DNA from: a virus
Direction: 5' to 3' (one strand)
IMG/VR virus record: IMGVR_UViG_3300042520_000681
Span: 4,095 to 68,094 of that record
DNA length: 64,000 bases
Below, piece by piece: positions 6,947-64,000 of this stretch. The notes under the pieces were generated by a model. The model was not told where the DNA came from. It ran no database searches and saw only the letters and a program-made list of their open reading frames with translations. The translations under genes and the position numbers were made by a program. Positions within the stretch are counted from its first letter, which is position 1. Every line of letters starts with the position of its first letter.

Positions 6947-7185
6947 TCTCTTGTGCAGGTTATTTTGATTCTGTAGTGCCATCCGATTACTTCTACCTTT
7001 GCTCCGATCTTGGCGCGGAGATGGTCTGCCAAGTCTTCTTGGTAGATTTCTTTTGGCGAGTTAGCGAGGATTTCCATCAAATCCTCAACGATGAGCGTGT
7101 TGTGGCTCGTTATCTTGATCTCGTAAGTATCTATCAGTTTTCCGTTCGGGCAAGCAGCCCGGTGCGTAGTCTCGTAGGTGTTCAT
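6943..7185 (-). CDS. minimal T-fold QueF-like protein (80 aa)
   Basis: CP motif followed by D.YEI.I, VE and YQE, matching the QueF/QueF-L catalytic Cys and substrate Glu; ATGA-coupled to queD and the upstream gene. Confidence 0.65.
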   Translation of the reverse strand: MNTYETTHRAACPNGKLIDTYEIKITSHNTLIVEDLMEILANSPKEIYQEDLADHLRAKIGAKVEVIGWHYRIKITCTRE

Positions 7186-7772
7186 ATTAGCTTGGGTTGG
7201 TTGTGAAGTTCGTAGATTGCTTTTCGCATGTGGGTGTATCTGCCGAGTCCTGTTCCGTCCAGACTATCAACGCCGAAATTCTCGAAATACTCAAATCGTC
7301 CGGGCGTGTTTACTCTTCCGACATGAACCCACTTTTCTAGGGCTTGTGCAGCTTTTATGATTTGAACGACATGGTTTGACATCTTCCATTGGGTTGTGCC
7401 GCCGATGAAGATAGCCGATACTTCATCCCAAGGAATCTCCAAGTCTTCCTGACCATCTTGGCACACGAACGCAAGAGGAAAATCTATTCTATTCTTCCAC
7501 CTATGAAATACCTCAATGGTTCTCCGTGCGCTACCAACTATATCTGGAACAGCTACCCATCGACATAGATGCTTTTCCGGTTTTTGCCTTTCCAATAAAG
7601 TAAGGAAACCTTTTAATTCAAATGTAGCGAATGCTCCATTGTCGATACAATAATGTTTATTTGGTGCTTGGATGGCGCGTCTAGTTAATGGAGTTATCAA
7701 TTGTTCTACCTCGCATCCAATCTCGTCTTGCGCTTTTTGTAAGCTCCCAGATGTATCCAGCATTACAATCAT
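7182..7772 (-). CDS. TGT/DpdA-like deazaguanine DNA transglycosylase
   Basis: IDNGAF, PDIVG, QDG, IFIGG, VHVGRVN, DSLDGT motifs of the TGT-like barrel; likely start MIVMLD at 7772. Confidence 0.75.
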   Translation of the reverse strand: MIVMLDTSGSLQKAQDEIGCEVEQLITPLTRRAIQAPNKHYCIDNGAFATFELKGFLTLLERQKPEKHLCRWVAVPDIVGSARRTIEVFHRWKNRIDFPLAFVCQDGQEDLEIPWDEVSAIFIGGTTQWKMSNHVVQIIKAAQALEKWVHVGRVNTPGRFEYFENFGVDSLDGTGLGRYTHMRKAIYELHNQPKLI

Positions 7773-35636: not shown

Positions 35637-36263
35637 CTATCCTTTCTTCCAGCAATAATTTATATCGTCAAAATCTTTCTTAATATCCTCGCTCAATCCC
35701 TGCCTCTGAATGTCAATCGGAACATGAACAGCCGCCTTGAGAGAACAACTGCAAACAAGGCAGGCTCCAAGCCTATCATCGTATTGTGTCTTTCTTTTGC
35801 CTATAACGCCCTGTATGAGCGTTAGCACCGCACCCATGCAAGCACCGCAGGAGAACTGCAAAGTCGTGTTAAACGGGCAACCAACGCAAATGCCAGCCCT
35901 TCTATCAGCCTCCTCTTGAGATACGAAGGCATCCTTGCCGGATAAGGTTGATTGCACCCAGATTCGCATCATGTTCAAGAACGAAAGAACGGCAGTCAAA
36001 GATAGCCTTCTGCGGGTTACTTTTTTAGAGCTATTCGGAATGCACTTTGATCCCCAGCTTGGATTCTGTTTACACATTTCAGATAAGAATTCTTCCTCCC
36101 AGTTTGGAGACAGCAAAATCCCATTAGCGTTGCAGTGGGATTTGTATGCATTGGTTATCGCTCGATAGTCGTAGTGTTTAAACTCAACCCCAGTTTGTGG
36201 AACTTTAATTCTCCAGTTCCCAGAAGGGGAACTAGACTTGTCTATCAGTTCATATTCGATCAT
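35637..36263 (-). CDS. Cys-rich hypothetical protein
   Basis: RR..IC..CP.N, C..C, C.VC.C.LKA zinc-binding pattern. Confidence 0.65.
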   Translation of the reverse strand: MIEYELIDKSSSPSGNWRIKVPQTGVEFKHYDYRAITNAYKSHCNANGILLSPNWEEEFLSEMCKQNPSWGSKCIPNSSKKVTRRRLSLTAVLSFLNMMRIWVQSTLSGKDAFVSQEEADRRAGICVGCPFNTTLQFSCGACMGAVLTLIQGVIGKRKTQYDDRLGACLVCSCSLKAAVHVPIDIQRQGLSEDIKKDFDDINYCWKKG

Positions 36264-39200
36264 TGTCTCATGCGCTTAACCGCTTGGACTGCCATATCCG
36301 ATGCACCCTTCACTTTGAAGTCACCAGCGGAGTAGCCTCTTGCGTATTTTTCAAGCTCATCATCGTAATCGCTTGGCTTCATTCTTTCAAGTTTTGATCT
36401 GTTTTTAAACATTCGATCCGACATTACTTTCCCGTATTCACGGACATATGACTCAAACTCATCATCTGTAAGAATGTCTCCGAATCTCTTTTGAGCATTT
36501 GTTCTAGTTGGGATTGAGGGTCCACCACCTTGCTTTAGAATAAGCTCATTCAGTTCGTTCATTGGTGTATTTTTCGGGAACGAGAATACAACAGGAACTC
36601 CTAGCTTAAATAGCTTGTCGCCCCAGTCATCAGCCCTGACTGGTTGGCCTAGAGCGTTAAGAGCTTTAGCGCCCATCCACGGCCCAACAATCGGTGTATT
36701 TGCGTAGATAGCTCCCTCGACTGAAGACCTATCGACTGGATCGTTTATGAAATCAGTAATGTTCCTTGCGACAGATGTTCCGAGAAACGGGATAAATGTC
36801 TTTCCAAAGTATCCAGCTTGGCTCGCAAGTTCCTCTGTTACTCTTCCGTCTTTAGATGCATCGAACAGTGGTTTGGTGAAAGCAGCATACGGGCCTCTCT
36901 GTGCAAGAGCAAAGAATGATGATCCAAGCATGGATGCCATTGCGCTTAAATCTTCAGGCTCTTTCTTCGTGTCGTTCTGCTTCTTCTTAATTTCCCAGTC
37001 ATCCATAGCTCCAGCAAGCATGATCGGGAAGAATAAAGCTTCACCACCGCGCCCGATGTTAATTGGGATAATTGTATCTCCAACTACAATATGGATGCTG
37101 TATGGCTTCCACTTCTTGTTCCATGAGTCAAAGTATTGCCTGTCCGTTGTGGCACTGGGGCCGTTACCTGTAATAACAATCCTAAACTGCCTGTCGTCTT
37201 CATCGTCGGATGATCCAGCTCTCAATGCGGCAAGGCCAAGCATAACGATTGAACCCGCAATAGCTTCTGTTAGCCTTTGCTTGAATTGAGCGTCTGTTTG
37301 AAGAGACATTGCGTATGGAGAGTCTTGTCCTTTATTCTTTTTCATGTTATCAACCCAGAGTCTAACGAACCCATACGGACTAAACCAAGCAACATTGTGA
37401 AACACTCTAGCTGGAACCAATGCGAATCCGTAAAGCATCTTTGAGAAAATCTGCATTCCAGAACCTTGTCTTGCTGCACCAGAAGCTATTGTTTGCAAGA
37501 ATGAAATCGGAAGATATGACAACATTCCTTCGTCAGAAAGGTTTGTGGTTTCATTTTCTGCGCCCTTGATTGTAATCGCCTTGTTTCTACCTACAGAAAG
37601 AAGCGCATCATTGATCGAGGCATCAAGAGTATCTATCGGGCTTATTCCTTCTGAAGATAGGGCAGAGATAACTTCAGATTTAACCGCCAAGTCTGCCAGC
37701 ACTCCAGCACGATCCCTTGGCATCCCGCTGGCTATGCTTTCTGCAATAACTCTCCGCTTTGTATGGAGAACCATATTCGCAAACTCTTTCAGCTTATCTT
37801 TAGGAATCTTGCCTTTAGTGTTGGCAGCTAGAGCCTCCATCGCATATCGAGTAATATTCTGATTCTCCAGCATGGCGATTGCGCCTTGGTCAAGAGATGA
37901 AAGGACTCGCCCTGTAATCTGCGTCATACCTACAGCCATGTTCACAAATCCAGCGGCATACTCTCCGTTAGCCCACTGCTTCTTGCCTTTATCGAAAAGC
38001 TCCCTCAATACATTCTGACCTTGCAAATATTCGACAACATCATTTAAGTAAATTTGATTCTTGAAAGCGTAAGATGTCTGGTCATACCAAGACCTCATGC
38101 TGTCGAGGAATGATTCAAATGCTATTGGAATTCTAGCTGGATCGGTGAAAGCGTATTTACCGATGTCAGTCATCATATTCCTAACGGTAAATCCAATCGG
38201 AGATGCAATGTTGACAGTTACTGTCGGGATACCCATCAGTGCGTTTCCAACATAATAAGCACCTAGAGCATCCTTAAATCTTACGGGAAGTTTAGCATCA
38301 ACGATAATCTTGTTAAGGTCACTCATCGCTTCGCGGCGAGTCACATCATCGTTATCTGGGTTGTTGATTATATTGTCTAGCTGGACGATCTTCTCAAATT
38401 GTTCCTTCGTAAATCCATCCCATCCGTTCTCTTTCGCAATAACGCTTTCAATAGTTTTAGAAGGATCGAGAACACCAGTTCTAATTGCGACTTGAATCTT
38501 CTTCAGCGAGTCTTTCGCCATGCGACTGTTTCTTGAAAGATAGTTATTCCAAGGTGCTGATCTTCCTAGAGTTTCTTCAAATGCCTTTTGTTTCGCTGCA
38601 ACGAATCTCTCGGACAGAATACTGTCGTATAGTTTAGCGGCAGTCGTAGCGGCATCTCCAGTAAGCCCTGCTTGCTCAAGGTAGCCTTTGATAACTTTCT
38701 CTATCCAGCCGGGAGTCTGCTGTTCCTCAAGCGGGGTATTCTTAATGCTCGCAATCATCTCCTTGAGCGAACCTTTCTTGAGAAGGGTTTCCAGCTTCTT
38801 CGTTATGTTCCTCTTGGTGCGCTTTTCAATTTTCTCTACATCAGAAGCAACCTCTTCTGGAGTTCCAATCGTTGCGTTATCAGCGGCATCTATCGCATCG
38901 GATACAGCATCAACCTGCTCCTTGGTAGGATTCCCTCTTGCAAATATCTCTGCGGCTGTTCTGTCTCTCTTGGCTTTCTGCTCAACTTTAAGTGCGCCGT
39001 ATCCATCAATGTCGTATTCTCTGGCAGCTCTCAATGCCTCGCCAGCTTCCTTTCTTCCTCCAGCCCTGTTATCTACTGGCATACGATTAATTCTGCGAAC
39101 CAAGAATGAAAGCATTGTAGAGTCACCCAAGGCTGCTAATTTCGCGGAGTAATTCGCTAGAGATACAGAGAACAAACTAGCACCCATCCTAGAATCGGAA

Positions 39201-42200
39201 TTCGTCTCAACATCTACAAGATCGTTAATCTGACCAGCCAAATTGTTTGCTTCTCCAGATTTAATGTCTAGCAATCTGGATATGTATAGCCAAGCATTCT
39301 TAGTTGCCTCATCAGATACAGTCGTTCCGTCAAAGAAGTTCTTTCTCAAGACTTCATTCGTTTGTTTGATGATTCCAACTGGAGTCGTGATGATGGGAGT
39401 CCCGCGATCAGTTCTTCCTGCTACTTGTTCCGTGCGAGGCTCTGCTTCTACCGCCATCATTCTTGGCCCTTCAACTTCTCCTTCTCTGACAATCTCCTCG
39501 CCAGCGGCAAAGCGTCTCTTAGCCGTGGATAGGATAGCAAGTGCCGTCCTATTCGGATCGGACATTTGGAAGTTCTTACCAAATACTTTATTTGCGAATG
39601 CCTTCAGCGCATCAAGCACAGCATTCCAAAGGCTTCTGCGTTGCGGATTAACGATTGTATAGGAAGTGAATGCAATAACTTTACTCTCTTCGATTTGGGA
39701 TTCTTCAGTCTCCTCGTTATAGCTTTCTTCTACGATCTTATCTATCTTCGCTTTGTCTTCTGGTGAAAGAGAGTTGTAGAAATTATCGAATGCCGCCTTA
39801 AATTTCTTATCTCCGAATGCGTAGTGACCTAGTTCGTGAGCGATGATGTCTCCAACATTCGCGTTCTTTTTAATGTAAGCATTGTTTACAATAAGGATTC
39901 CCAAGTCAGGGTAGTATGCCGCTTGGTATTTTTTCTCTTTATCTACTGCGTCATCCACTACATATACTCGGTCTGGAATCTTTCCACCGAAATACCTTTG
40001 GATTCTTTGGTTCAGTTTAACCTGCCCGTATCTTTCATTCTCTGGAAGCGGGTCTGGCTCTGATGCCATCTTGCGCCTTCTGCTACTGACAGGCTTCATG
40101 TCGTTCTTCTCGACTACTTGCGTCTCGCCTGTCTTCTCGTTCTTTACATTGTAATACTGCTCGCCGAACTTCTTGTCGTTGGCACTCTGCGGGATTACTT
40201 CTTCGATGGTGTATGTCTGCGGACTCTTGCCTAACTTGACTCGGTTGCCTACTGCGATGCCTTCCGGTTGAGCTGGTGTAGTCGTTTGTTTAGATACAAT
40301 ATATCCTTTTGTGCCAATTTCGGCCCTGCCTTCTTGAACATCTAAAATATCAGAAGCGGTTTGATCTATTTGAGAATCCGAATAATTTTCGTTGATCTGC
40401 CAATTAACATCGCCTTTTCTTTTTGCGTTATGACTTTTAATCATTTCGCGGGATGATGCTTTAGCCAAAGATGCAGCATCTTGAAGACTTGCTCCATTAT
40501 CAATTGCTTTACGCATTTCAACAAGACTTGCTGCTTCTATCTGTTCTCTCACGCCTCCAGAGCCAACGGAAGTTCCTCTGCCTCCAGACACTTGATTTGC
40601 TTGTTCGTAAAGACGACCGACTCTTCCTGTTATTAAAGAATCGGATATTGATTTTATATCTGACGCAGGCGCAACCTCTGGCGCGGGAGCTTCTGCGGGT
40701 GCAGCTTCGACGGATTGAGCTTTAGGCTTGAAACTTCTAATATCAACAATCTCGCTTGTGTAAGCTGGTCTGTTTGGCCCCTTTGAAGGTTCAATAGTTA
40801 CAATCCCATCGTAACCTGCATCTCGTATTGCTTGAGATAATTCAGCGCCTGTCTTACCTCCATACTGATTTGATAGAATGTTTTTCCAGTTGGATGAATC
40901 GCCATATCCACCACCAAATTCAACAACAAGCGGGTTTTCAAAACGAACTGTTCCTTTTTCAAATCTTGAGTCAAGATTTTGAGATGCACTTGGCGTTGAC
41001 TCAACCATGTATTTCCCACTAGGTTCAATATCTTGTCCAAATCGTGATCCAAGTTGTGGAGATTTCTCTGTGTTTCGTATTGAGAAAAATTCAAATGGAT
41101 TACCTGTAGTTGGAGTGGTTACAGCTTCTGTTGGTGCAGCTTCCCGCTCAGTAACAACTTGCTCTTCGGCGGTTATGGCAGGCTCTGTTATTCCCGTTCG
41201 GGAAGGTTCTACTACTGGCTCGGTGACTGGTGCGGTTGGTGCAATGGTTGGTTCTGCTTGCTGAGTAGCGATCCTTGCTTGGAATGCAGATGAAGCCGGA
41301 TCGTTTTTAGCGTCCCATGCGCTAACAGTCTGATCTGTAACTCTGTCTGTAATGTCACCGATAGCCATTTCCCTATCTCTTGCCACTCTATCGCCATCTG
41401 TAACAAGACTTCTTCCAGACTCTGTTAGTTTTGGAACTTTTGTTTTTGTAACTAGTCCCGCTTCTTTCGCTGCGGTTATATTTTCTTCCGTTAGAGCGTC
41501 AGCGTTGTATGGTCGGCGACCTGCTTTATCTGAAATTGCTTTAACGATCTCGTATTCAGCAGAAGGTGGTGGAGGTAGCGATGGGTCAAGTGCTGCGAAA
41601 TCACGACCTATTTGACTAGCTTCTTCTCTAGTTGCTGCGCTTTCTGCGCGTTGAATTAGATTTTCAATTTCTGGAGAAACCTGCGGTTCTTCCGCGATAG
41701 TAGGTGTTGGAGTTATCTCGGAAACTTGCGCTCCTTCTTCTGAGACAACAGGTGCTTCAGCAATAGGTGCTGGTGTAACGGCTTCTTCTAGTGCTGGAGT
41801 CGTTACGGGTTCTTGTTCAACAATAGCGGGGGCCGCTGGCTGCGCTAGGATCGCCGCTCCGTCTTCGTTAATAACAGGCTTGCCTTTGACTATATCGACC
41901 AGTCCTGCTTCGGATAGCGCGGAAATCTGTTCGCGGGTTGCCGTGTTATCCGCGACAGACCGCAAACCAAATATTACTTGCCCTTCTTCTTCGCCTCTCG
42001 CTGGAGGCTGTAGGCCACCGCTAACGCCTGCTTCTTCGGTTTCGACTTGAGTTCCGTCTTGAGGTTCTTGACGAACGCCTTCTTGCTGGATGATTTCTTG
42101 AGTGGCATCTGTTGGTATGGGTTGTGCAGTTGGTTCTGCGGGTTGTGTAATATCTAAAGGCTTTCTTCTTATTCCAGAAAATACATCGTATATTCCTTCT

Positions 42201-43726
42201 TCTCTTCCGTATGTAGCTCCGGGCGTCTCTACTGGTAAAAAATCAGTTGGCAGTTTTCCAGCTTTAGCAGGCTTTGCTTCTGGCGCGGCTACCCTAGTTG
42301 CTTTAACTTCTTTAATCGCTTCTAGGGCGTTCTGTGCGTTAGCACGGGCTTCTTCTGTAGCAGCAGTAGCGAGTTCGCTTGTGAATGATTGCTCTGCTCT
42401 TGTAAGCTCTTCTGGCGCGACCTGTGCAATTGCGGAATACCTTGCAACATAATCATCCTTTGTAGGGATCGCTGTTGGAGGTGCTTCAGTTGTCTTTACG
42501 GCTTCTAGCTGCTCGTCCAACTGCCTAGCAAGCTCGTCTTGGCGCAAGATACTTGAGGATTTATCCTGCAAAACACTTGCAGTAAGCGGTGCGCCATTCT
42601 CTGCAACTTTTCTTGCAATGTCGTTTGTAGCCTCAAAGTTCTCTTCGGTTAATGTTTTTTGCTTGATAGGAGACGGACGCTCTAAGCCTCCAACAACTCC
42701 ACCCATTGCGGCTCCAGCGATGCCTTCCATCGTTCCAGCAGAGACAACGCCACGCATTGTCGGGACATCAAAGCCTTCCCTCTGTAGGGCAATGTTTGTC
42801 GCTAGTTGCTCTTGGGCGGCTTGTGCTGTTTCTGGAATAGCTTCAGTAATACCGCCCTTTAGAACGCGAGAAACCATGCCTGCTGTTGGCGCTGTTCCTT
42901 GCTTGGTAAGCATTCTAGTAATGATAGATTCAGCACCTATTGTAGATGCGGCTCCAAGCCCCGCTCCAAGCAGAATCTGATCTAGGTTCTTTCCTCCGTA
43001 AGATTGTGCATCTACCGCTGCCTTTTCTGCCTCTTGCTCTCCGATGCCAGCCTTGACTAGCTCATCCTTAACCTCACTGTAAATATTCCCCTTCGTCATA
43101 CCAGCACCCATGCCAGCACCAACACCAGTTTGAACCGCTCTAATTCCCAAAGAACCTAATTTAGCAGCACTTCCCGCAAGCCCAGTAGCCAGCACGGGAG
43201 CCATCGTTCCCAAGGCTTGAGAGAGTGTATCAACGGGAGCAATGCTGAATGCCTTGATACCTGCCTTAACTTGCTCGCCGAATCCTTTGTCCTCGGCATC
43301 CTGCATGATCCTAGCAATCTCAGTTTGATCTTCCTTGGCTTGCGCCGAAAGAAGGTCTGCCATATACCCCTCAACTCCAGACAATGATTTCGATACAGGA
43401 TTATCAGCACCGAGAATATCGGTCATCATCTTGATTCCCTGCACCCCACCTCTTGCGATGTTTACAGGAATATCGAGGGCTTGGCGGAATACGCTCTCTT
43501 CTTCTACCTTAGGCTTGGCTCCTAGTGCAGTTGCGCCTTTAGGCCGAAAACGAGATTTATCGTATTGGTATGGAATTGACGCTTGGGTTCCAATACTGGA
43601 TTCATCAACTTCTTCAAATGGTTGATTTATATCAAAGGATGAAGCGGCAGGTTTTACAATAGGTTCCTCATTGATGGGTTCAAGCTCATCAACTTCTTCA
43701 AATGGTAAGGTAGGATCAAAAGCCAT
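36260..43726 (-). CDS. giant internal virion / DNA-ejection polyvalent protein (2488 aa)
   Basis: Gly/Ala-rich membrane-like N-terminus, ART-like NPL...GYDGI...EIV module, HELGH zincin module, helical C-terminus. Confidence 0.75.
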   Translation of the reverse strand: MAFDPTLPFEEVDELEPINEEPIVKPAASSFDINQPFEEVDESSIGTQASIPYQYDKSRFRPKGATALGAKPKVEEESVFRQALDIPVNIARGGVQGIKMMTDILGADNPVSKSLSGVEGYMADLLSAQAKEDQTEIARIMQDAEDKGFGEQVKAGIKAFSIAPVDTLSQALGTMAPVLATGLAGSAAKLGSLGIRAVQTGVGAGMGAGMTKGNIYSEVKDELVKAGIGEQEAEKAAVDAQSYGGKNLDQILLGAGLGAASTIGAESIITRMLTKQGTAPTAGMVSRVLKGGITEAIPETAQAAQEQLATNIALQREGFDVPTMRGVVSAGTMEGIAGAAMGGVVGGLERPSPIKQKTLTEENFEATNDIARKVAENGAPLTASVLQDKSSSILRQDELARQLDEQLEAVKTTEAPPTAIPTKDDYVARYSAIAQVAPEELTRAEQSFTSELATAATEEARANAQNALEAIKEVKATRVAAPEAKPAKAGKLPTDFLPVETPGATYGREEGIYDVFSGIRRKPLDITQPAEPTAQPIPTDATQEIIQQEGVRQEPQDGTQVETEEAGVSGGLQPPARGEEEGQVIFGLRSVADNTATREQISALSEAGLVDIVKGKPVINEDGAAILAQPAAPAIVEQEPVTTPALEEAVTPAPIAEAPVVSEEGAQVSEITPTPTIAEEPQVSPEIENLIQRAESAATREEASQIGRDFAALDPSLPPPPSAEYEIVKAISDKAGRRPYNADALTEENITAAKEAGLVTKTKVPKLTESGRSLVTDGDRVARDREMAIGDITDRVTDQTVSAWDAKNDPASSAFQARIATQQAEPTIAPTAPVTEPVVEPSRTGITEPAITAEEQVVTEREAAPTEAVTTPTTGNPFEFFSIRNTEKSPQLGSRFGQDIEPSGKYMVESTPSASQNLDSRFEKGTVRFENPLVVEFGGGYGDSSNWKNILSNQYGGKTGAELSQAIRDAGYDGIVTIEPSKGPNRPAYTSEIVDIRSFKPKAQSVEAAPAEAPAPEVAPASDIKSISDSLITGRVGRLYEQANQVSGGRGTSVGSGGVREQIEAASLVEMRKAIDNGASLQDAASLAKASSREMIKSHNAKRKGDVNWQINENYSDSQIDQTASDILDVQEGRAEIGTKGYIVSKQTTTPAQPEGIAVGNRVKLGKSPQTYTIEEVIPQSANDKKFGEQYYNVKNEKTGETQVVEKNDMKPVSSRRRKMASEPDPLPENERYGQVKLNQRIQRYFGGKIPDRVYVVDDAVDKEKKYQAAYYPDLGILIVNNAYIKKNANVGDIIAHELGHYAFGDKKFKAAFDNFYNSLSPEDKAKIDKIVEESYNEETEESQIEESKVIAFTSYTIVNPQRRSLWNAVLDALKAFANKVFGKNFQMSDPNRTALAILSTAKRRFAAGEEIVREGEVEGPRMMAVEAEPRTEQVAGRTDRGTPIITTPVGIIKQTNEVLRKNFFDGTTVSDEATKNAWLYISRLLDIKSGEANNLAGQINDLVDVETNSDSRMGASLFSVSLANYSAKLAALGDSTMLSFLVRRINRMPVDNRAGGRKEAGEALRAAREYDIDGYGALKVEQKAKRDRTAAEIFARGNPTKEQVDAVSDAIDAADNATIGTPEEVASDVEKIEKRTKRNITKKLETLLKKGSLKEMIASIKNTPLEEQQTPGWIEKVIKGYLEQAGLTGDAATTAAKLYDSILSERFVAAKQKAFEETLGRSAPWNNYLSRNSRMAKDSLKKIQVAIRTGVLDPSKTIESVIAKENGWDGFTKEQFEKIVQLDNIINNPDNDDVTRREAMSDLNKIIVDAKLPVRFKDALGAYYVGNALMGIPTVTVNIASPIGFTVRNMMTDIGKYAFTDPARIPIAFESFLDSMRSWYDQTSYAFKNQIYLNDVVEYLQGQNVLRELFDKGKKQWANGEYAAGFVNMAVGMTQITGRVLSSLDQGAIAMLENQNITRYAMEALAANTKGKIPKDKLKEFANMVLHTKRRVIAESIASGMPRDRAGVLADLAVKSEVISALSSEGISPIDTLDASINDALLSVGRNKAITIKGAENETTNLSDEGMLSYLPISFLQTIASGAARQGSGMQIFSKMLYGFALVPARVFHNVAWFSPYGFVRLWVDNMKKNKGQDSPYAMSLQTDAQFKQRLTEAIAGSIVMLGLAALRAGSSDDEDDRQFRIVITGNGPSATTDRQYFDSWNKKWKPYSIHIVVGDTIIPINIGRGGEALFFPIMLAGAMDDWEIKKKQNDTKKEPEDLSAMASMLGSSFFALAQRGPYAAFTKPLFDASKDGRVTEELASQAGYFGKTFIPFLGTSVARNITDFINDPVDRSSVEGAIYANTPIVGPWMGAKALNALGQPVRADDWGDKLFKLGVPVVFSFPKNTPMNELNELILKQGGGPSIPTRTNAQKRFGDILTDDEFESYVREYGKVMSDRMFKNRSKLERMKPSDYDDELEKYARGYSAGDFKVKGASDMAVQAVKRMRQ

Positions 43727-56632: not shown

Positions 56633-57904
56633 ATGAAAAAAGAACTACCGCATGATCTAGATGCGGAGCATGGATTCCTATGCTCCTGCATGAACGAAAA
56701 TAAGGTAATCGGGAAAACCGCAGATAGGGTAAACCTAGATTACTTCCACTTCGACGCCAACAAGCACATCTGGCAAGCAATGCTGGATATGTGGGTATCC
56801 AAGAAGCCAATTGACCTCCTGACTCTAACCTGTGAGTTGAGAGGCAAAGGCACACTGGATGAGGTCGGAGGAGAACAGCACATCACGAATGTCTATACAT
56901 TTGTTCCATCCCATGTGAACTGGGATTCCTACTTGCACACGATGGAGGACTTGATGGTTCGCAGGAGAATCCTCAATACCTGTAAGAGGATTTTCTTGGA
57001 TGCATTCGACAGGACGATTGATACCGAGACGCTACAGGCTTCCGCTAGTAAGGACATCACTGGAATGGTATCTACCAAGACGGAGGTAAGACTAGCTAAA
57101 GATGTTTTGTCTGCCTGCGTTAATCGGTGGGAAGAGGCCGCTAGAACTGGTGGCGAGATTAATCGGGGGCATCCATCAGGTATATCCAAGTGGGATATAG
57201 CAACGAGAGCATTCAGGCCCAAGACACTTCACATCATCGCTGGTGCAGCTAAAGCAGGAAAGACTACATCAGCTCTACAGATGGTTACAAATCCTGTAAT
57301 CAAATGTAATGTCCCGATTGCGATTATCAGTATGGAAATGTCCGCTGAAGAGATCATGGACAAGCATATCGCCTCTATATCGCAGATTGCTCTATCTGAC
57401 CTGCTAGACGGCAAGCTACGCAAGGAAGACCACGCTAGGCTCTCTAAGGCTATCTCTGAGACGATGAACAGACCGATCCATATCGTTGACGAGGCTTGCA
57501 TGAATGTCAGCCAATTCAGGGCTAGATGCAGAAGGCTTGTCGTAGAGAACAAGGTTGAGATTATTATGGTGGACTATGCTCAGTTGATGGAAGGATCGAA
57601 TGATCCCAAGAGCCGCGAGCGTGAGGTTGCCGAAGTATCTAGAACAGCAAAGATCGTCGCCAAGGAACTGAATGTATGTATTGTCCTTCTAGCGCAGCTA
57701 AACGAGAACGGGGCCGTCCGTGAATCAAGGACATTCTACATGGACTGCGATTCCTTCACTAAGATCATGCCAGACGAGGAAGGAGATAGTGGAGAGGATT
57801 ACATAATGCATATCACGCATAATCGGCATGGTGGGACATTCTCCATCCCGCTCCGCTTCATCAAGCATCAAGCTAGATTTGAACAGAAGATTGTTGAACA
57901 ATAA
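56633..57904 (+). CDS. dnaB: DnaB-like replicative helicase
   Basis: P..LDAE N-terminus, Walker A GAAKAGKT, SMEM, VDYAQL, LAQLN, RES, NRHG. Confidence 0.93.
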   Translation: MKKELPHDLDAEHGFLCSCMNENKVIGKTADRVNLDYFHFDANKHIWQAMLDMWVSKKPIDLLTLTCELRGKGTLDEVGGEQHITNVYTFVPSHVNWDSYLHTMEDLMVRRRILNTCKRIFLDAFDRTIDTETLQASASKDITGMVSTKTEVRLAKDVLSACVNRWEEAARTGGEINRGHPSGISKWDIATRAFRPKTLHIIAGAAKAGKTTSALQMVTNPVIKCNVPIAIISMEMSAEEIMDKHIASISQIALSDLLDGKLRKEDHARLSKAISETMNRPIHIVDEACMNVSQFRARCRRLVVENKVEIIMVDYAQLMEGSNDPKSREREVAEVSRTAKIVAKELNVCIVLLAQLNENGAVRESRTFYMDCDSFTKIMPDEEGDSGEDYIMHITHNRHGGTFSIPLRFIKHQARFEQKIVEQ

Positions 57905-57907
57905 CCC

Positions 57908-58159
57908 ATGAAAACAATACAAGAAAAAGTGGACGAACTAATCGGGGAGGATGAGTCAATCCTACTAGCTGACGGATTCGATTCTGCCTTCATAGGTGTA
58001 GCTAGGCAGTTCAATACTCCGTTTGCTGTTTATGACAGGGAACAATGCATTGAAATCCTAATGGAAAATATGTCTCACGAAGATGCGGAGGAATATTTCC
58101 AATACAATGTTGAAGGCGCATATGTCGGTGAAAACACCCCAGCGTTTTTGATAAAATAA
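57908..58159 (+). CDS. conserved phage protein
   Basis: ADGFD.AFIG...VYD...EDA.EYF.YN..GAYVGE.TP.F. Confidence 0.75.
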   Translation: MKTIQEKVDELIGEDESILLADGFDSAFIGVARQFNTPFAVYDREQCIEILMENMSHEDAEEYFQYNVEGAYVGENTPAFLIK

Positions 58160-58283
58160 ATTACGGTTTATTTTAAAAGAATTTGATTATCAGCCATGCT
58201 GTGATAGTCTAAAAATATAAACACACCCGCTGTTCCTCTAGCACAGCAATGAACATTATGGGCGGGTTAGCTCTTTGAAACAT

Positions 58284-58761
58284 TTTAGGTCTGGGGCGCA
58301 GGAGCCAACGGGATATTCAGTTATCCTGTGAATCTGATTGAATTCAGACAGACTAAATTTAGGATTATTCCGTGACAAATACTACCCATTATTTGTCACG
58401 AATAAATCTGATTTTAGATTTGTCCGAACGGTTCGATGCATGTCTCCACGGCATGGGCAAAACCGCAGAGGATGAATCTTATTTTGATCGGCGGCGTGGA
58501 AGCCACTTCCCAATGGGTTGTGCTGTAGCCAAGGGCTATAGAGACACGCAGGTAGAGGATGACGAACACCTCATTAAAAACGGCTATCGAACTAGCTAGG
58601 GTAGCGTCTAGCCCGATCAATAATTTTCAGCAGGTAGGTGTCTAATTACCTGATGAGCGAACTGCGTAGCGGAACGCCACATCGAACTGGGGGAACGCTG
58701 GGTCGTTCACAAGTTTGGCAACCCCCGCCTAAAAAGAGGATGCATACTCGTTCCTGCTGAA
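58284..58761 (+). ncRNA. tandem array of five structured RNA elements, two tRNA-like
   Basis: successive elements each closed by a terminal helix and separated by short A/T spacers. Confidence 0.55.
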
Positions 58762-58805
58762 TATCCTTTATTCAGTATAAAATATAAATATACAAACTAA
58801 CGCAT

Positions 58806-58952
58806 ATGAAACTAAAAAACAGCGAAGATAGAAAAGCCAGAATCAATCAGGTAAAATCTCAAACGACAGGAGCAGGGAAGGGCGATAGGCCAAGACCTGT
58901 GACAAGCAAGTATTGGGATAACTACGATTCCATTGACTGGAAGAAAAAATAA
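58806..58952 (+). CDS. small conserved phage protein (48 aa, not in ORF track)
   Basis: GAGKGDRPRPV...Y.DNYD.I.W motif. Confidence 0.65.
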   Translation: MKLKNSEDRKARINQVKSQTTGAGKGDRPRPVTSKYWDNYDSIDWKKK

Positions 58953-58977: not shown

Positions 58978-60099
58978 ATGAAACATACATATCATATATT
59001 GGGGCTTCCACATACTGTTACATCTAAAGAGTTTAACGCTTGTGCATATACGCAAAAAGTCGTTAAGTTCGGAAAGATGATGACGGAGCGTGGACATGAA
59101 GTCATCCATTACGGACACGAAGATTCAGACTTGATCTGCACAGAGCATGTATCCGTCCTAACGAACGACGACTTCAAGAAGAGCTACGGATCGCACGACT
59201 GGCGCAAGACATTCTTCAAGTTCAATACGCAAGACCACGCATACCAGACATTCTACCGCAATGCGATTAAGGCTATCGGTCAGCGCAAGAAGAAGAATGA
59301 CTTTATCCTTCCATTCTGGGGCAGCGGAGTCAGGCCGATTTGTGACGCGCATAACGACATGATTGTTGTAGAGCCGGGAATCGGATATGCAGGAGGACAC
59401 TGGGCAAGATGGAAGGTATGGGAGAGTTACGCGATTTATCATGCCTATTGTGGCTTGAAGAATGTTGGTCAGTGCAATCAAGATTGGTATGATGTTGTAA
59501 TTCCTAATTATTTCGATGAAGAAGACTTTGAATTTAACGATAAGAAAGAAGATTACTTTTTGTATCTTGGCAGGGTTTATTCAGGCAAAGGCGTTGATGT
59601 TGCGATTCAAGCCACGGAAAAAGCAGGAGTTAAGCTTGTCATTGCAGGACAGAAAGAAGAAGGCTATAAATTGCCAGCGCATGTTGAATATGTCGGATAT
59701 GCCGACGTGGTAAAGCGCAAGAAATTGATGGCAAATGCGAAGGCTAGTTTTTTACCTTCCATGTATGTTGAGCCATTTGGAGGCGTCCAGATTGAGAACT
59801 TGCTTTGTGGAACTCCCACGATAACGACAGACTGGGGTAGCTTTGCAGAAAATAATTTGCATGGGATTACAGGCTATCGTTGCCGGACTATGGGTGACTT
59901 CGTAGATGCTATCAAAAGAATTGATGAGATCGACCCAGCGGATTGCCGTAAGTTCGGAGAGAACTTCACGCTTGAAAAGGTAGCCCCGATGTATGAGAAG
60001 TATTTCAACGATGTCATGGATGTTTATACAGGCAAGGGTTGGTATGCAGATGGAAATGACATTGACGCAATGACACGATTCTACCCCAGCATTTACTAA
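58978..60099 (+). CDS. GT4-family glycosyltransferase
   Basis: LYLGR...KG, AG, PS.YVEPFG.V.IE...CGTP.I.T..G. Confidence 0.88.
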   Translation: MKHTYHILGLPHTVTSKEFNACAYTQKVVKFGKMMTERGHEVIHYGHEDSDLICTEHVSVLTNDDFKKSYGSHDWRKTFFKFNTQDHAYQTFYRNAIKAIGQRKKKNDFILPFWGSGVRPICDAHNDMIVVEPGIGYAGGHWARWKVWESYAIYHAYCGLKNVGQCNQDWYDVVIPNYFDEEDFEFNDKKEDYFLYLGRVYSGKGVDVAIQATEKAGVKLVIAGQKEEGYKLPAHVEYVGYADVVKRKKLMANAKASFLPSMYVEPFGGVQIENLLCGTPTITTDWGSFAENNLHGITGYRCRTMGDFVDAIKRIDEIDPADCRKFGENFTLEKVAPMYEKYFNDVMDVYTGKGWYADGNDIDAMTRFYPSIY

Positions 60100-63361: not shown

Positions 63362-63592
63362 CCAAATTGCAATCTAGACCCCAAAATGCAATTTACCCTT
63401 TTTCTAAAAACAACAGGTGATCTACCCTCGATAGCGTAATGATTAAGTTATCCGAGGAAGACAGACCAACGCAGAACACACAATACCTCTAGATTAGCGT
63501 ATAAGCCTCTAGGAATGCTCGGAAGTAGAAAACCGATACATCGTAGCAGTAAGGTAACAAAACGCGTTTAACGGGCTTCTAAACGAAATTAC

Positions 63593-63666
63593 GCCCTCGT
63601 AGCTCAATAGGACAGAGCGACAGATTTCTAATCTGTAGGTTGCTGGTTCGATCCCAGCCGAGGGTA
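63593..63666 (+). tRNA. tRNA-Arg(TCT)
   Basis: acceptor GCCCTCG/CGAGGGT, D arm GCTC..GAGC, anticodon arm ACAGA-TTTCTAA-TCTGT, T arm GCTGG-TTCGATC-CCAGC; CCA not encoded. Confidence 0.95.
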
Positions 63667-63928
63667 AGTATCTCAATCAACGAGAACTTACGAAAACTAA
63701 AACCTACTAACTGCGAAAAATTGCGAAAATAGCGAGATAGTAGGTCGAGAAAGGCGTAAATATTTTATTTTTATATTTTTATATTTTTACCTAGGTCTTG
63801 TTTTACGCCTGATGCACGGCCCGCGTCCCCCCACCCCCTGCCACCCCTGCCGTCCCCTAGCTCACGGCCCCACGGCTCACGGCCTGCCCTGCCCTCCCTC
63901 CCGCCGTCCTTGCTAGTGTGTCCTGCCG

Positions 63929-64000
63929 TCCTACCTACCTACCTACCTACCTACCTACCTACCCTACCTACCCTACCTACCCTACCTACCCTACCTACCT
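63929..64000. repeat. (CCTA)n then (CCCTACCTA)n tandem repeat, truncated by window end
   Basis: read directly from the sequence; preceded by a C-rich tract from ~63818. Confidence 0.9.

Follow-up and report, generated by a model that had tools for sequence, protein, structure and literature searches.

A cassette array of separately folding small RNAs in uncultured freshwater phages

The DNA analyzed here, called the window, is a 64-kb stretch of the virus record IMGVR_UViG_3300042520_000681 (68,094 nt, rated 99% complete), which stems from an uncultured lake phage. Close to its end lies a tandem array of six or seven small RNAs that fold separately, in the order U0-U1-U2-U3-U4-U5. This array is one instance of a wider cassette system in uncultured freshwater phages, with at least six structured elements in the window and at least one robust new RNA family. 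Across the genomes compared, the units of the pool are absent from Rfam 15, follow a largely fixed order and are gained and lost individually. We consider it likely that 58183-58775 is a promoter-driven non-coding RNA operon, whose cassette units act as RNAs and not as a leader. The stretch has no coding signal, its structure belongs to the plus strand, its units are modular and it is independent of the gene downstream.

Coding potential, folding and strand of the array

The array stretch (58160-58805, 646 nt) is located between two small plus-strand genes, p83 and p48. No credible open reading frame (ORF) was found in it. None of the six ORFs searched against Pfam and neither of the two tested against PHROGs gave a match. 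The longest ORF (75 aa) starts in U2, runs through U3 and enters U4; it cannot be conserved, since the relatives L001, L007 and L202 lack U2 and U4, U2 and U3, and U2, respectively. The overlapping ORFs, whose conservation at the protein level would have contradicted the initial annotation, are thus not conserved, as whole units come and go, and they belong to no Pfam or PHROG family.

Folding energies were compared with those of dinucleotide shuffles. As a whole, 58211-58800 (590 nt) folds at -189.1 kcal/mol versus -155.1 +/- 5.8 kcal/mol for the shuffles (z -5.85, 0 of 100 as good). The five units proposed by the initial annotation, U1 to U5, are real: all their coordinates and stems are present in the sequence and each unit beats its shuffles on the plus strand. 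Three further elements had been overlooked, namely the leader hairpin U0 (58225-58267), a junction motif (58272-58286) and a tail hairpin (58757-58775). The spacers are short and A/U-rich, with AUUUUAG or AAUUUAG repeated in three of them. On the minus strand, the z-scores are -2.33 for U1, -5.24 for U2, -1.07 for U3, -1.52 for U4 and -2.96 for U5. In the alignments of homologues, G.U cells outnumber A.C cells by 25 to 6 in U5 and by 30 to 14 in U3, from which the structures are assigned to plus-strand RNA. The covariation anticipated in virome homologues was seen in several units (U5, U3 and U4); it is strong in U5, moderate in U3 and limited in U4, U0 and U1.

The units could alternatively be DNA-level features, such as replication-origin hairpins, protein-binding palindromes or mobile elements with terminal inverted repeats. 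In several phages the array comes shortly after the DnaB gene, U2 forms a perfect inverted repeat found in one or the other orientation in other phages, units are cleanly inserted and lost, and the palindromic P6 loops of U5 described below can be read as DNA palindromes. We nevertheless hold this explanation to be scarcely credible. It leaves unexplained the 25 to 6 excess of G.U over A.C in U5, the invariant U.G pair of U3, which would be a C.A mismatch on the other strand, and a covarying pseudoknot that has no DNA-level rationale, and other arrays are not beside DnaB. Small mobile elements, such as miniature inverted-repeat transposable elements, occur in several copies per genome with shared terminal inverted repeats, whereas every unit here has one copy in the 68-kb genome and a closing stem of its own.

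The U5 RNA family

U5 (58624-58761, plus strand) is a pseudoknotted unit of about 137 nt, closed by UCAGCAGG/CCUGCUGA (58626-58761), with a z-score of -2.11 (4 of 200 shuffles as good). It comprises the helices P1 (58628-58634/58753-58759), P2 (58635-58640/58726-58731) and P3 (58652-58655/58680-58683, plus a variable hairpin), a pseudoknot in which S1 (58683-58687/58713-58717) is interleaved with S2 (58689-58692/58722-58725), the hairpin P5 (58693-58708) and the hairpin P6 (58736-58749), whose loop reads AUGCAU (58740-58745). A covariance model built from four sequences (R1) retrieved 18 matches, 17 of them distinct, down to an E-value of 8e-5. In the alignment of the 17 distinct members, 96.0% of 544 cells are standard pairs compared with 73.8% in shuffles, a figure somewhat inflated by the fitting of the alignment to the model structure, with a large margin all the same; controls with slid partners are paired at 36-44%. 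Both-sided changes were found in 28 of the 33 pairs, and none of the five measures used is reached by any of 500 shuffles. The pseudoknot had been left out of the model. Depending on the lineage, its strands pair as CGAAC/GUUUG, CGAGG/CCUUG, CGGGA/UCCCG, UGGA/UCCA or CGGA/UCCG, and these five different complementary forms of S1 provide independent support for it. Judged from these alignments, U5 is a well-supported new RNA family with covariation as strong as that of established families, kept in phages that span 57% to 99% DnaB identity.

Close relatives show length differences of 7, 9 and 16 nt in the variable hairpin. Few of the unpaired letters are conserved, and those that are consist mainly of A, a pattern more in line with a structural scaffold than with a ligand pocket or an active site. 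The core of the P6 loop is self-complementary in 17 of the 17 distinct members and the stem below it covaries. The loops read GAUGCAUA, CAUGCAUA or AUGCAU alone, GUGCAU, GCGCGU and UAUA; the palindromes thus take three independent forms, plus one variant that keeps the wobble. The probability for a random loop of the same length to have a self-complementary core is 0.046, 0.053 or 0.062. Self-complementarity is therefore kept while the letters change, as in a symmetric kissing loop, and since adjacent letters of a small loop cannot pair internally, the simplest reading is a pairing between two molecules. Palindrome-switching loops are taken as evidence for intermolecular kissing loops in OLE and GOLLD (bioRxiv 10.1101/2024.12.08.627333). 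Homodimerization of U5 through the P6 loop may thus be entertained, on comparative grounds, with slightly more doubt than confidence; alternatively, the palindrome would act at the DNA level.

Two ribozyme classes were considered for U5 and rejected. The hammerhead ribozyme is defined by the conserved letters of its catalytic core. U5 carries hammerhead-like letters in the window (CUGAUGAG, 58650-58657), but L001, L007 and L207 have CGGAUGAG there, Rfam reports no match, and the letters form the 5' strand of helix P3. Ribozymes similar to that of hepatitis delta virus (HDV) are nested double pseudoknots whose last strand is preceded by a joiner with a conserved catalytic C. The strand order of the U5 core (helix 1 5' strand, helix 2 5' strand, hairpin, helix 1 3' strand, short A-rich joiner, helix 2 3' strand) is likewise that of a nested double pseudoknot. 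In contrast with the HDV-like ribozymes, the joiner of U5 reads GCAA, GAAA, GGAA or AAAA with no conserved C among the 17 members, a second joiner of 4-5 nt separates the hairpin from the helix 1 3' strand, cleavage at the 5' end of helix 1 would be internal to U5, and there is no Rfam match.

The other units and their relation to tRNA

U3 (58416-58479, plus strand) has 64 nt and is closed by AGAUUUGUCC/GGAUGAAUCU (z -3.12, 2 of 200 shuffles as good). It is a stem of three helices with conserved internal loops GAA and NNGA. Among 14 distinct versions, 88.6% of the cells are paired versus 82.0% in shuffles, and 21 cells are changed on both sides where 10.4 are expected (0 of 500 shuffles), counts that come from homologues gathered by an exact pattern of 16-22 nt in the 5' half, so that this half is fixed and its diversity under-sampled. 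The 16-nt pattern retrieved 35 stretches, 12 of which are U3 units, the remainder being unrelated G+C-rich sequence. Two pairs of the inner helix covary (GC in 8 versions and AU in 6; UA in 6, CG in 4 and UG in 4) and the U.G pair is present in 14 of 14. At L016:1715-1735, a mini-hairpin AGGAC-AAA-GUCC, corresponding to the outermost stem of U3, takes the place of the full U3 found at L018:5505-5580. Since L016 keeps this outer stem alone, the interior of a unit can be lost or gained within its own closing helix. A GAA/AGA internal-loop pattern is common to U3 and U4.

U4 (58484-58620, plus strand; 137 nt) is closed by UUGAUCGG/CCGAUCAA (z -2.10, 2 of 200 shuffles as good). It forms a four-way junction in which the closing stem is joined by a GCGUG/CACGC arm that carries an insert, by a central module that can be exchanged and by a last hairpin, GCUAG-GGUAGCGU-CUAGC (58595-58612). 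This hairpin has an 8-nt loop and abuts the closing stem, as CUAGC (58608-58612) is immediately followed by CCGAUCAA (58613-58620). The GCUAG/CUAGC pairing, named by the initial annotation, is missed by the minimum-energy fold and gains support from the compensatory forms GCUGG/CCAGC and ACUGG/CCAGU in relatives. Five distinct versions of U4 were obtained, with two covarying positions in the last hairpin, an invariant closing stem and GCGUG/CACGC arm, and a central module that is swapped wholesale; the search pattern was exact and fixed the 5' 18 nt, so that this diversity is under-sampled. It retrieved 8 stretches, 3 of which are chance matches in coding sequence.

U1 (58284-58357, plus strand) is a four-arm cloverleaf of 74 nt (-27.4 kcal/mol, z -4.15, 0 of 200 shuffles as good). 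Its closing stem has 6 bp and its arms, exactly those previously named, have 3, 8 and 5 bp, each with a 6-nt loop. The full homologue in L209 differs by five substitutions, four in loops and one turning a G.U into a G-C pair, and folds into the same cloverleaf (z -5.40). In the runs X10 and X19, two variants were found, A>G at 58348 (U-A to U.G) and T>C at 58354 (G.U to G-C). The homologue and the variants are consistent with the cloverleaf, as far as such few sequences can speak, and fall short of proof. U2 (58361-58410, plus strand) is a long hairpin made of GUGACAAAUA, an 8-nt loop and UAUUUGUCAC, extended by flanking pairs (z -6.08, 0 of 200 shuffles as good).

U1 and U4 share with tRNA a four-way junction and a 5-bp hairpin that abuts the 3' strand of the closing stem. 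The proposed tRNA-mimic geometry holds for this cloverleaf topology and fails on every tRNA feature tested. A canonical tRNA has a 7-bp acceptor stem, a 5-bp anticodon stem with a 7-nt loop and a 7-nt T loop; U1 has a 6-bp closing stem, an 8-bp central arm and 6-nt loops, and U4 an 8-nt loop. ARAGORN found in the window only the tRNA-Arg at 63593-63666, and the Rfam tRNA model RF00005 had no match in 58100-58900 even at E <= 10. The statement that no unit carries TTCG is not strictly true, since U3 holds GGTTCGAT at 58430-58437. If the units were decayed tRNA genes that keep a fold and no function, one could account for the topology of U1 and U4, for GGTTCGAT in U3 and for the real tRNA genes nearby, one of which follows the array in L180. 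We judge such an origin very improbable. Beside the silence of ARAGORN and of the Rfam tRNA model on the units, compensatory changes indicate that the folds are still under selection, U5, U3 and the other unit types are not cloverleaves, and U5 is retained from 57% to 99% DnaB identity.

Gain and loss of units among relatives

Relatives were collected as 21 virus contigs by DnaB similarity; more were added through p48 alignment, short DNA patterns and one metagenome scan. Even at 97-99% DnaB identity, two phages can differ by the presence of entire units. Compared with the window, L001 (DnaB 99%) has U0'-U3-U5, L002 (97%) has U0-U2-U3-U5 and L007 (82%) has U0-U4-U5, while U0'-U3-U4-U5 is found in L202 and U0'-U1-U2-U3-U5 in L209. 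In public DNA runs, U3 is joined straight to a variant of U5, and 58215-58410 is found replaced by 62 other letters. Arrays also occur in phages with DnaB 57-65% identical, and in at least one separate, unrelated phage group (L167, L200, L203-L205); part of their units come from the set U3, U4 and U5 and the rest are others.

A scan with unit signatures defined by the authors, those for the junction and U5 being loose, found two or more signatures on one strand in 31 records, the window included. The order, with few exceptions, is (U0) - junction - (U8/U1) - (U2) - U3 - U4 - U6 - U7 - U5 - (W). With the additional types U6, U7, U8, V, W, X and Y, the pool amounts to at least 12 types. U6 is a closed, structured unit (CCCCGUUCC...GGCGGGG) and U7 has about 160 nt (GCGGUGGAGCAUUGAGGG...GCGACCUGAACUCCACCGC), with a minimal form of 57 nt in L167. 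Additional types are found at L018:5577-5860, at L146:2030-2336, in L167/L200/L203-L205 and, on the reverse strand, in L180 (oriented 481-790) and L212 (oriented 7098-7600). Arrays may be as short as two units or one, U5 standing alone in L013 and L058. The first pattern used on the sequence collection gave 120 stretches, only one of which, L058, passed E < 0.01 with the U5 model; L131 followed at E 0.037 and L090 at E 0.41, and the others are chance matches. Units are probably exchanged by recombination in the short repeated A/U-rich linkers (AUUUUAG-like).

The relation of the array to p48 bears on another explanation, according to which the units form a cis-acting 5' leader, such as a stack of riboswitches or attenuators, controlling p48 and the glycosyltransferase gene behind it. 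A p48-type gene does begin 10-50 nt after U5 in the window, L001, L007, L013, L015 and L146, and a scan found no strong terminator between U5 and p48. The association is frequent and not constant. L003 and L008 (DnaB 82-83%) have no array and only 84 nt from DnaB to p48, which thus follows DnaB directly; L020 has the identical spacing and no array either. Only 2 of 14 p48-type loci found with protein alignment have U5, and in L172 and L214 p48 is upstream of the array. No gene follows U5 on its strand in L172, L206 and L209. The last element of the array in L212/L217 and L180 is a G+C-rich stem with UCUUUUUU behind it, a terminator-like hairpin that was read by eye, its 18-nt loop exceeding the limit of the scan; beyond it come reverse-strand genes in L212/L217 and a separately placed tRNA-Cys in L180. 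Thus, no constant same-strand gene is found downstream, as would be for a riboswitch or leader, and the few conserved unpaired nucleotides of U5 are unlike a ligand pocket. Because p48 occurs without the array and arrays end without a downstream gene, the units are not regarded as a leader for p48, and a cis-acting role is in our view most improbable.

Proposed transcription and processing, and signs of expression

The sigma-70-like promoter candidate, found where the initial annotation had placed it, consists of TTGATT (58183-58188), a 16-nt spacer and TAGTCT (58205-58210) on the plus strand, with TG two bases ahead of TAGTCT. It is near-identical in the close relatives L001, L002, L007 and L202, a conservation that is uninformative at that distance; L004 has an analogous TTGATT-16-TATACT ahead of its array. 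Transcription from this site is somewhat favored. A weak Rfam match to RT-9 (30.8 bits versus a gathering score of 46.1, E 0.007), the best sub-threshold one near the array, was noted outside the units, at 58150-58226. It spans the promoter region and the A/U-rich hairpin behind the stop codon of p83, and chance resemblance to a terminator-like hairpin is its probable cause.

U0 (58225-58267, plus strand) pairs ACCCGC with GCGGGU and has an inner UGUUC/GAACA helix. Compared with the version of L004, L009, L010 and L011, it shows two both-sided changes, one in the outer helix (C-G to U-A) and one in the inner helix (U-A to C-G). A different hairpin, U0', takes its place in L001, L172, L202 and L209. 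The junction motif TCTTTGAAACATTTT (58272-58286, plus strand) precedes the first unit. When up to 3 mismatches are allowed, the window has no second copy of it beyond chance-level matches (5 found versus 4.9 expected), and variants of it stand likewise ahead of the first unit in L015, L016 and L018, whose DnaB is just 57% identical, and in L180, L212 and L214. A junction-motif scan gave 10 stretches, 2 of them arrays already known and 8 without array sequence past the motif. The array is closed by the tail hairpin CUGAAUA-UCCUU-UAUUCAG (58757-58775, plus strand; z -6.26), which overlaps the 3' strand of U5 P1 and is kept in L001, L007 and L202. No U run follows it and the terminator scan does not list it.

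On the proposed model, transcription would start a few bases past 58210, U0 would form a 5' hairpin and the later units would fold independently. RNase E-type enzymes prefer single-stranded A/U-rich sequence, and RNase P recognizes a T-arm-like hairpin together with the closing stem that stacks on it. AUUU(U)(A)G is common to the linkers; host endonucleases would cut the precursor there into stable RNAs of unit size, RNase P being a candidate for U1 and U4. We view linker cutting into separate stable RNAs, with RNase P as the candidate for the two cloverleaf units, as nearly balanced between acceptance and doubt.

Two contigs of an estuary metatranscriptome (X19) bear on expression. One of 258 nt joins U1 (58282-58357) to U3 and the start of U4 (58413-58525), and one of 198 nt spans 58644-58730 of U5. 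The first skips exactly U2; since five letters fit both sides of the joint, the break lies in the repeated linker. Both contigs are a weak hint of expression, being assembled at a depth of 2-8 without showing ends, from a library that may hold DNA. No X19 contig covers 58761-59100 (p48 and the start of the glycosyltransferase gene), a fact that was not used as evidence. The run X20, labelled RNA-Seq and probably DNA, was not used as expression evidence either.

Alternatively, the array would be one uncut RNA of about 560 nt, in which U0-U5 are domains, the peripheral ones optional, similar to ROOL or GOLLD. The U1-U3-U4 contig is unbroken over three units, the unit order is largely fixed and the whole stretch folds well beyond shuffles (z -5.85). 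GOLLD and ROOL are described near tRNA islands (bioRxiv 10.1101/2024.12.08.627333), and here a tRNA-Arg lies 4.8 kb downstream and a tRNA-Cys follows the array of L180. Every unit has, on the other side, its own closing helix and no inter-unit helix is conserved, the one present in the single-sequence fold clashing with P2 and S2 of U5. One- and two-unit arrays exist, such as U5 alone in L013 and L058, and no Rfam match to GOLLD or ROOL was obtained at E <= 10. A single uncut RNA thus appears unlikely.

Several points weigh against the operon reading itself. A consensus promoter scan did not list TTGATT-16-TAGTCT, because TAGTCT fits the consensus at 3 of 6 positions only. The consensus is moreover of sigma-70 type and may not apply in this phage, where Shine-Dalgarno-like motifs are few. 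In L016, L018 and L214, the array comes right after an ORF stop codon and no promoter-like site is seen. The fold energy of U0 is no better than that of shuffles (z -0.88). U1 has a single full homologue and no both-sided pair change. U2 folds similarly on both strands (z -6.08 on the plus and -5.24 on the minus strand), its sequence is identical in L002 and L209, which leaves no covariation to count, and its inverted repeat occurs elsewhere, in opposite orientation, in the distant L012, L013 and L021; this unit may be a DNA-level palindrome or a simple hairpin. The X19 contig that crosses two linkers fits uncut RNA or DNA carry-over as well as a precursor, and the shallow assembly of both contigs counts here too, together with the fixed 5' ends in the U3 and U4 samples and the model-fitted alignment of U5.

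Comparison with known RNAs and possible role

At gathering score, Rfam 15 recognizes in the window only the tRNA-Arg. The units reach the gathering score of none of its families, including hammerhead, HDV, twister, pistol, hatchet and riboswitches. At E <= 10, 58100-58900 gave seven sub-threshold matches, none of them to a plausible family on a unit, and none to tRNA, Y RNA-like, C4, GOLLD, ROOL or any ribozyme. On seven related loci, which include the extra unit types, Rfam found genuine tRNAs only. Full-text literature searches, with supplementary files outside their scope, yielded no description of such arrays.

The closest functional analogues are RNAC and RNAD of phage T4, followed by phage tRNA arrays, and GOLLD and ROOL are the closest in style. 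RNAC and RNAD are encoded among the tRNA genes of T4 and mature together with the tRNAs. Like the window units, they are phage-encoded, structured small RNAs other than tRNA near tRNA genes; unlike them, the window has five to seven units in one ORF-free array with no tRNA inside and with cassette exchange, a distinction drawn from descriptions and from the absence of an Rfam match. Their function is given as unknown (PMC9697503), a state that has lasted for decades. Phage tRNA arrays have in common with the window self-closed units of about 50-140 nt in tandem, short A/U-rich spacers and fast turnover of single units, and U1 and U4 share, in addition, the cloverleaf in which a 5-bp hairpin stacks on the closing helix. 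They differ by their anticodon-arm geometry, which the units lack, the loops having 6/6/6 nt in U1 and 8 nt in U4, and U3 and U5 not being cloverleaves.

P1 C4 RNA and YrlA are small structured phage or bacterial RNAs with tRNA-like elements, and C4 RNA is released from a precursor by RNase P. The initial annotation cited them as precedents. That precedent found no support in Rfam, with no match at E <= 10, and neither an antisense target nor a Ro-type protein gene was seen among the neighbors scanned. GOLLD and ROOL are phage-borne, structured and pseudoknotted RNAs without a known function, near tRNA genes and with variable regions and kissing loops (bioRxiv 10.1101/2024.12.08.627333). The likeness extends to the palindrome-switching loops of GOLLD, as in P6 of U5. 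The array differs in being a string of self-closed modules that are also found singly, in matching no Rfam family, and in a multimerization that is here a prediction.

Turnover among near-identical phages is the usual signature of host-takeover and counter-defence genes, and the array locus is absent from viable relatives. Since the turnover of the units resembles that of phage accessory and counter-defence genes, protein-binding or decoy roles are favored. By this analogy, the units might, tentatively, bind proteins of the host or the phage and serve as accessory RNAs in host takeover or counter-defence. A fuller picture, in which shuffled cassettes make up a new RNA-based accessory locus of phages, U5 associates with itself by way of its palindromic kissing loop, as RNA-only dimers or larger assemblies, and the cloverleaves stand in for tRNA toward host enzymes or nucleases, is more doubtful. 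Phage non-coding RNAs are far less explored than phage proteins, and this single locus gives several families absent from Rfam 15. Its turnover signature makes it an entry point on whether phages fight or rewire their hosts by structured RNAs. Being small (50-140 nt) and well defined, the units are open to tests in vitro even though the host is uncultured.

Genomic setting

The 646-nt array stretch has no blastn match among 50,697 cultured phage records and the DnaB of the window is below 31% identical to that of any cultured phage, so that no annotated relative could be used. Near-copies are found in lake-water and freshwater metagenome runs, with 13 rows from 11 studies holding at least half of the sampled words, a count made after setting aside the 5 rows that were flagged as possible sources. 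The bacterial and archaeal genome collection has no sequence that fits the U3 pattern exactly and therefore gave no prophage or host clue. A Shine-Dalgarno-like motif lies within 25 nt upstream of only 5 of 51 predicted genes and the leaders are A-rich, which suggests, on sequence grounds, a host that does not rely on Shine-Dalgarno pairing. TAnnTTTG is a Bacteroidota-type promoter box; it is not enriched (48 found versus 47.4 expected), and a guess at a Bacteroidota host was dropped.

Upstream of the array stretch are the gene of the DnaB-type helicase (56633-57904) and p83 (57908-58159, plus strand), an 83-aa ORF of the function-unknown family phrog_13182 (E 2.6e-24). p83 directly precedes the array promoter in L001, L007 and L202, and L002 has an extra coding stretch of about 650 nt between p83 and the array. 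Downstream are p48 (58806-58952, plus strand) and a group-1 glycosyltransferase gene (58978-60099). The 48-aa p48 is conserved at the protein level in relatives and belongs to a family of small, basic proteins with GKGDxPRP...Y.NWD.IDW, kept in phages with 57-99% DnaB identity and without a match in Pfam or PHROG. Among ten neighboring genes, Pfam recognized only a second glycosyltransferase and no RNA-handling enzyme. The tRNA-Arg (63593-63666), detected by both ARAGORN and Rfam, is preceded by non-coding DNA (63362-63592) that folds not beyond shuffles (z -1.16).

The interval from DnaB to the glycosyltransferase gene is hypervariable and an insertion hot spot for protein genes too. Inserts follow p48 in L005 and L020 (403 nt) and in L006 (about 1.1 kb), about 1.1 kb separate DnaB from p83 in L007, and the interval also varies in L011. 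Elsewhere in the window, PHROG gave no match at E <= 0.001 for an ORF of 2488 aa (36260-43726, minus strand). The record closes with 180 very C-rich nt (63820-64000 of the window), with short tandem repeats of the CCTA/CCCTA type up to the end, which may represent a genome terminus or an assembly edge.

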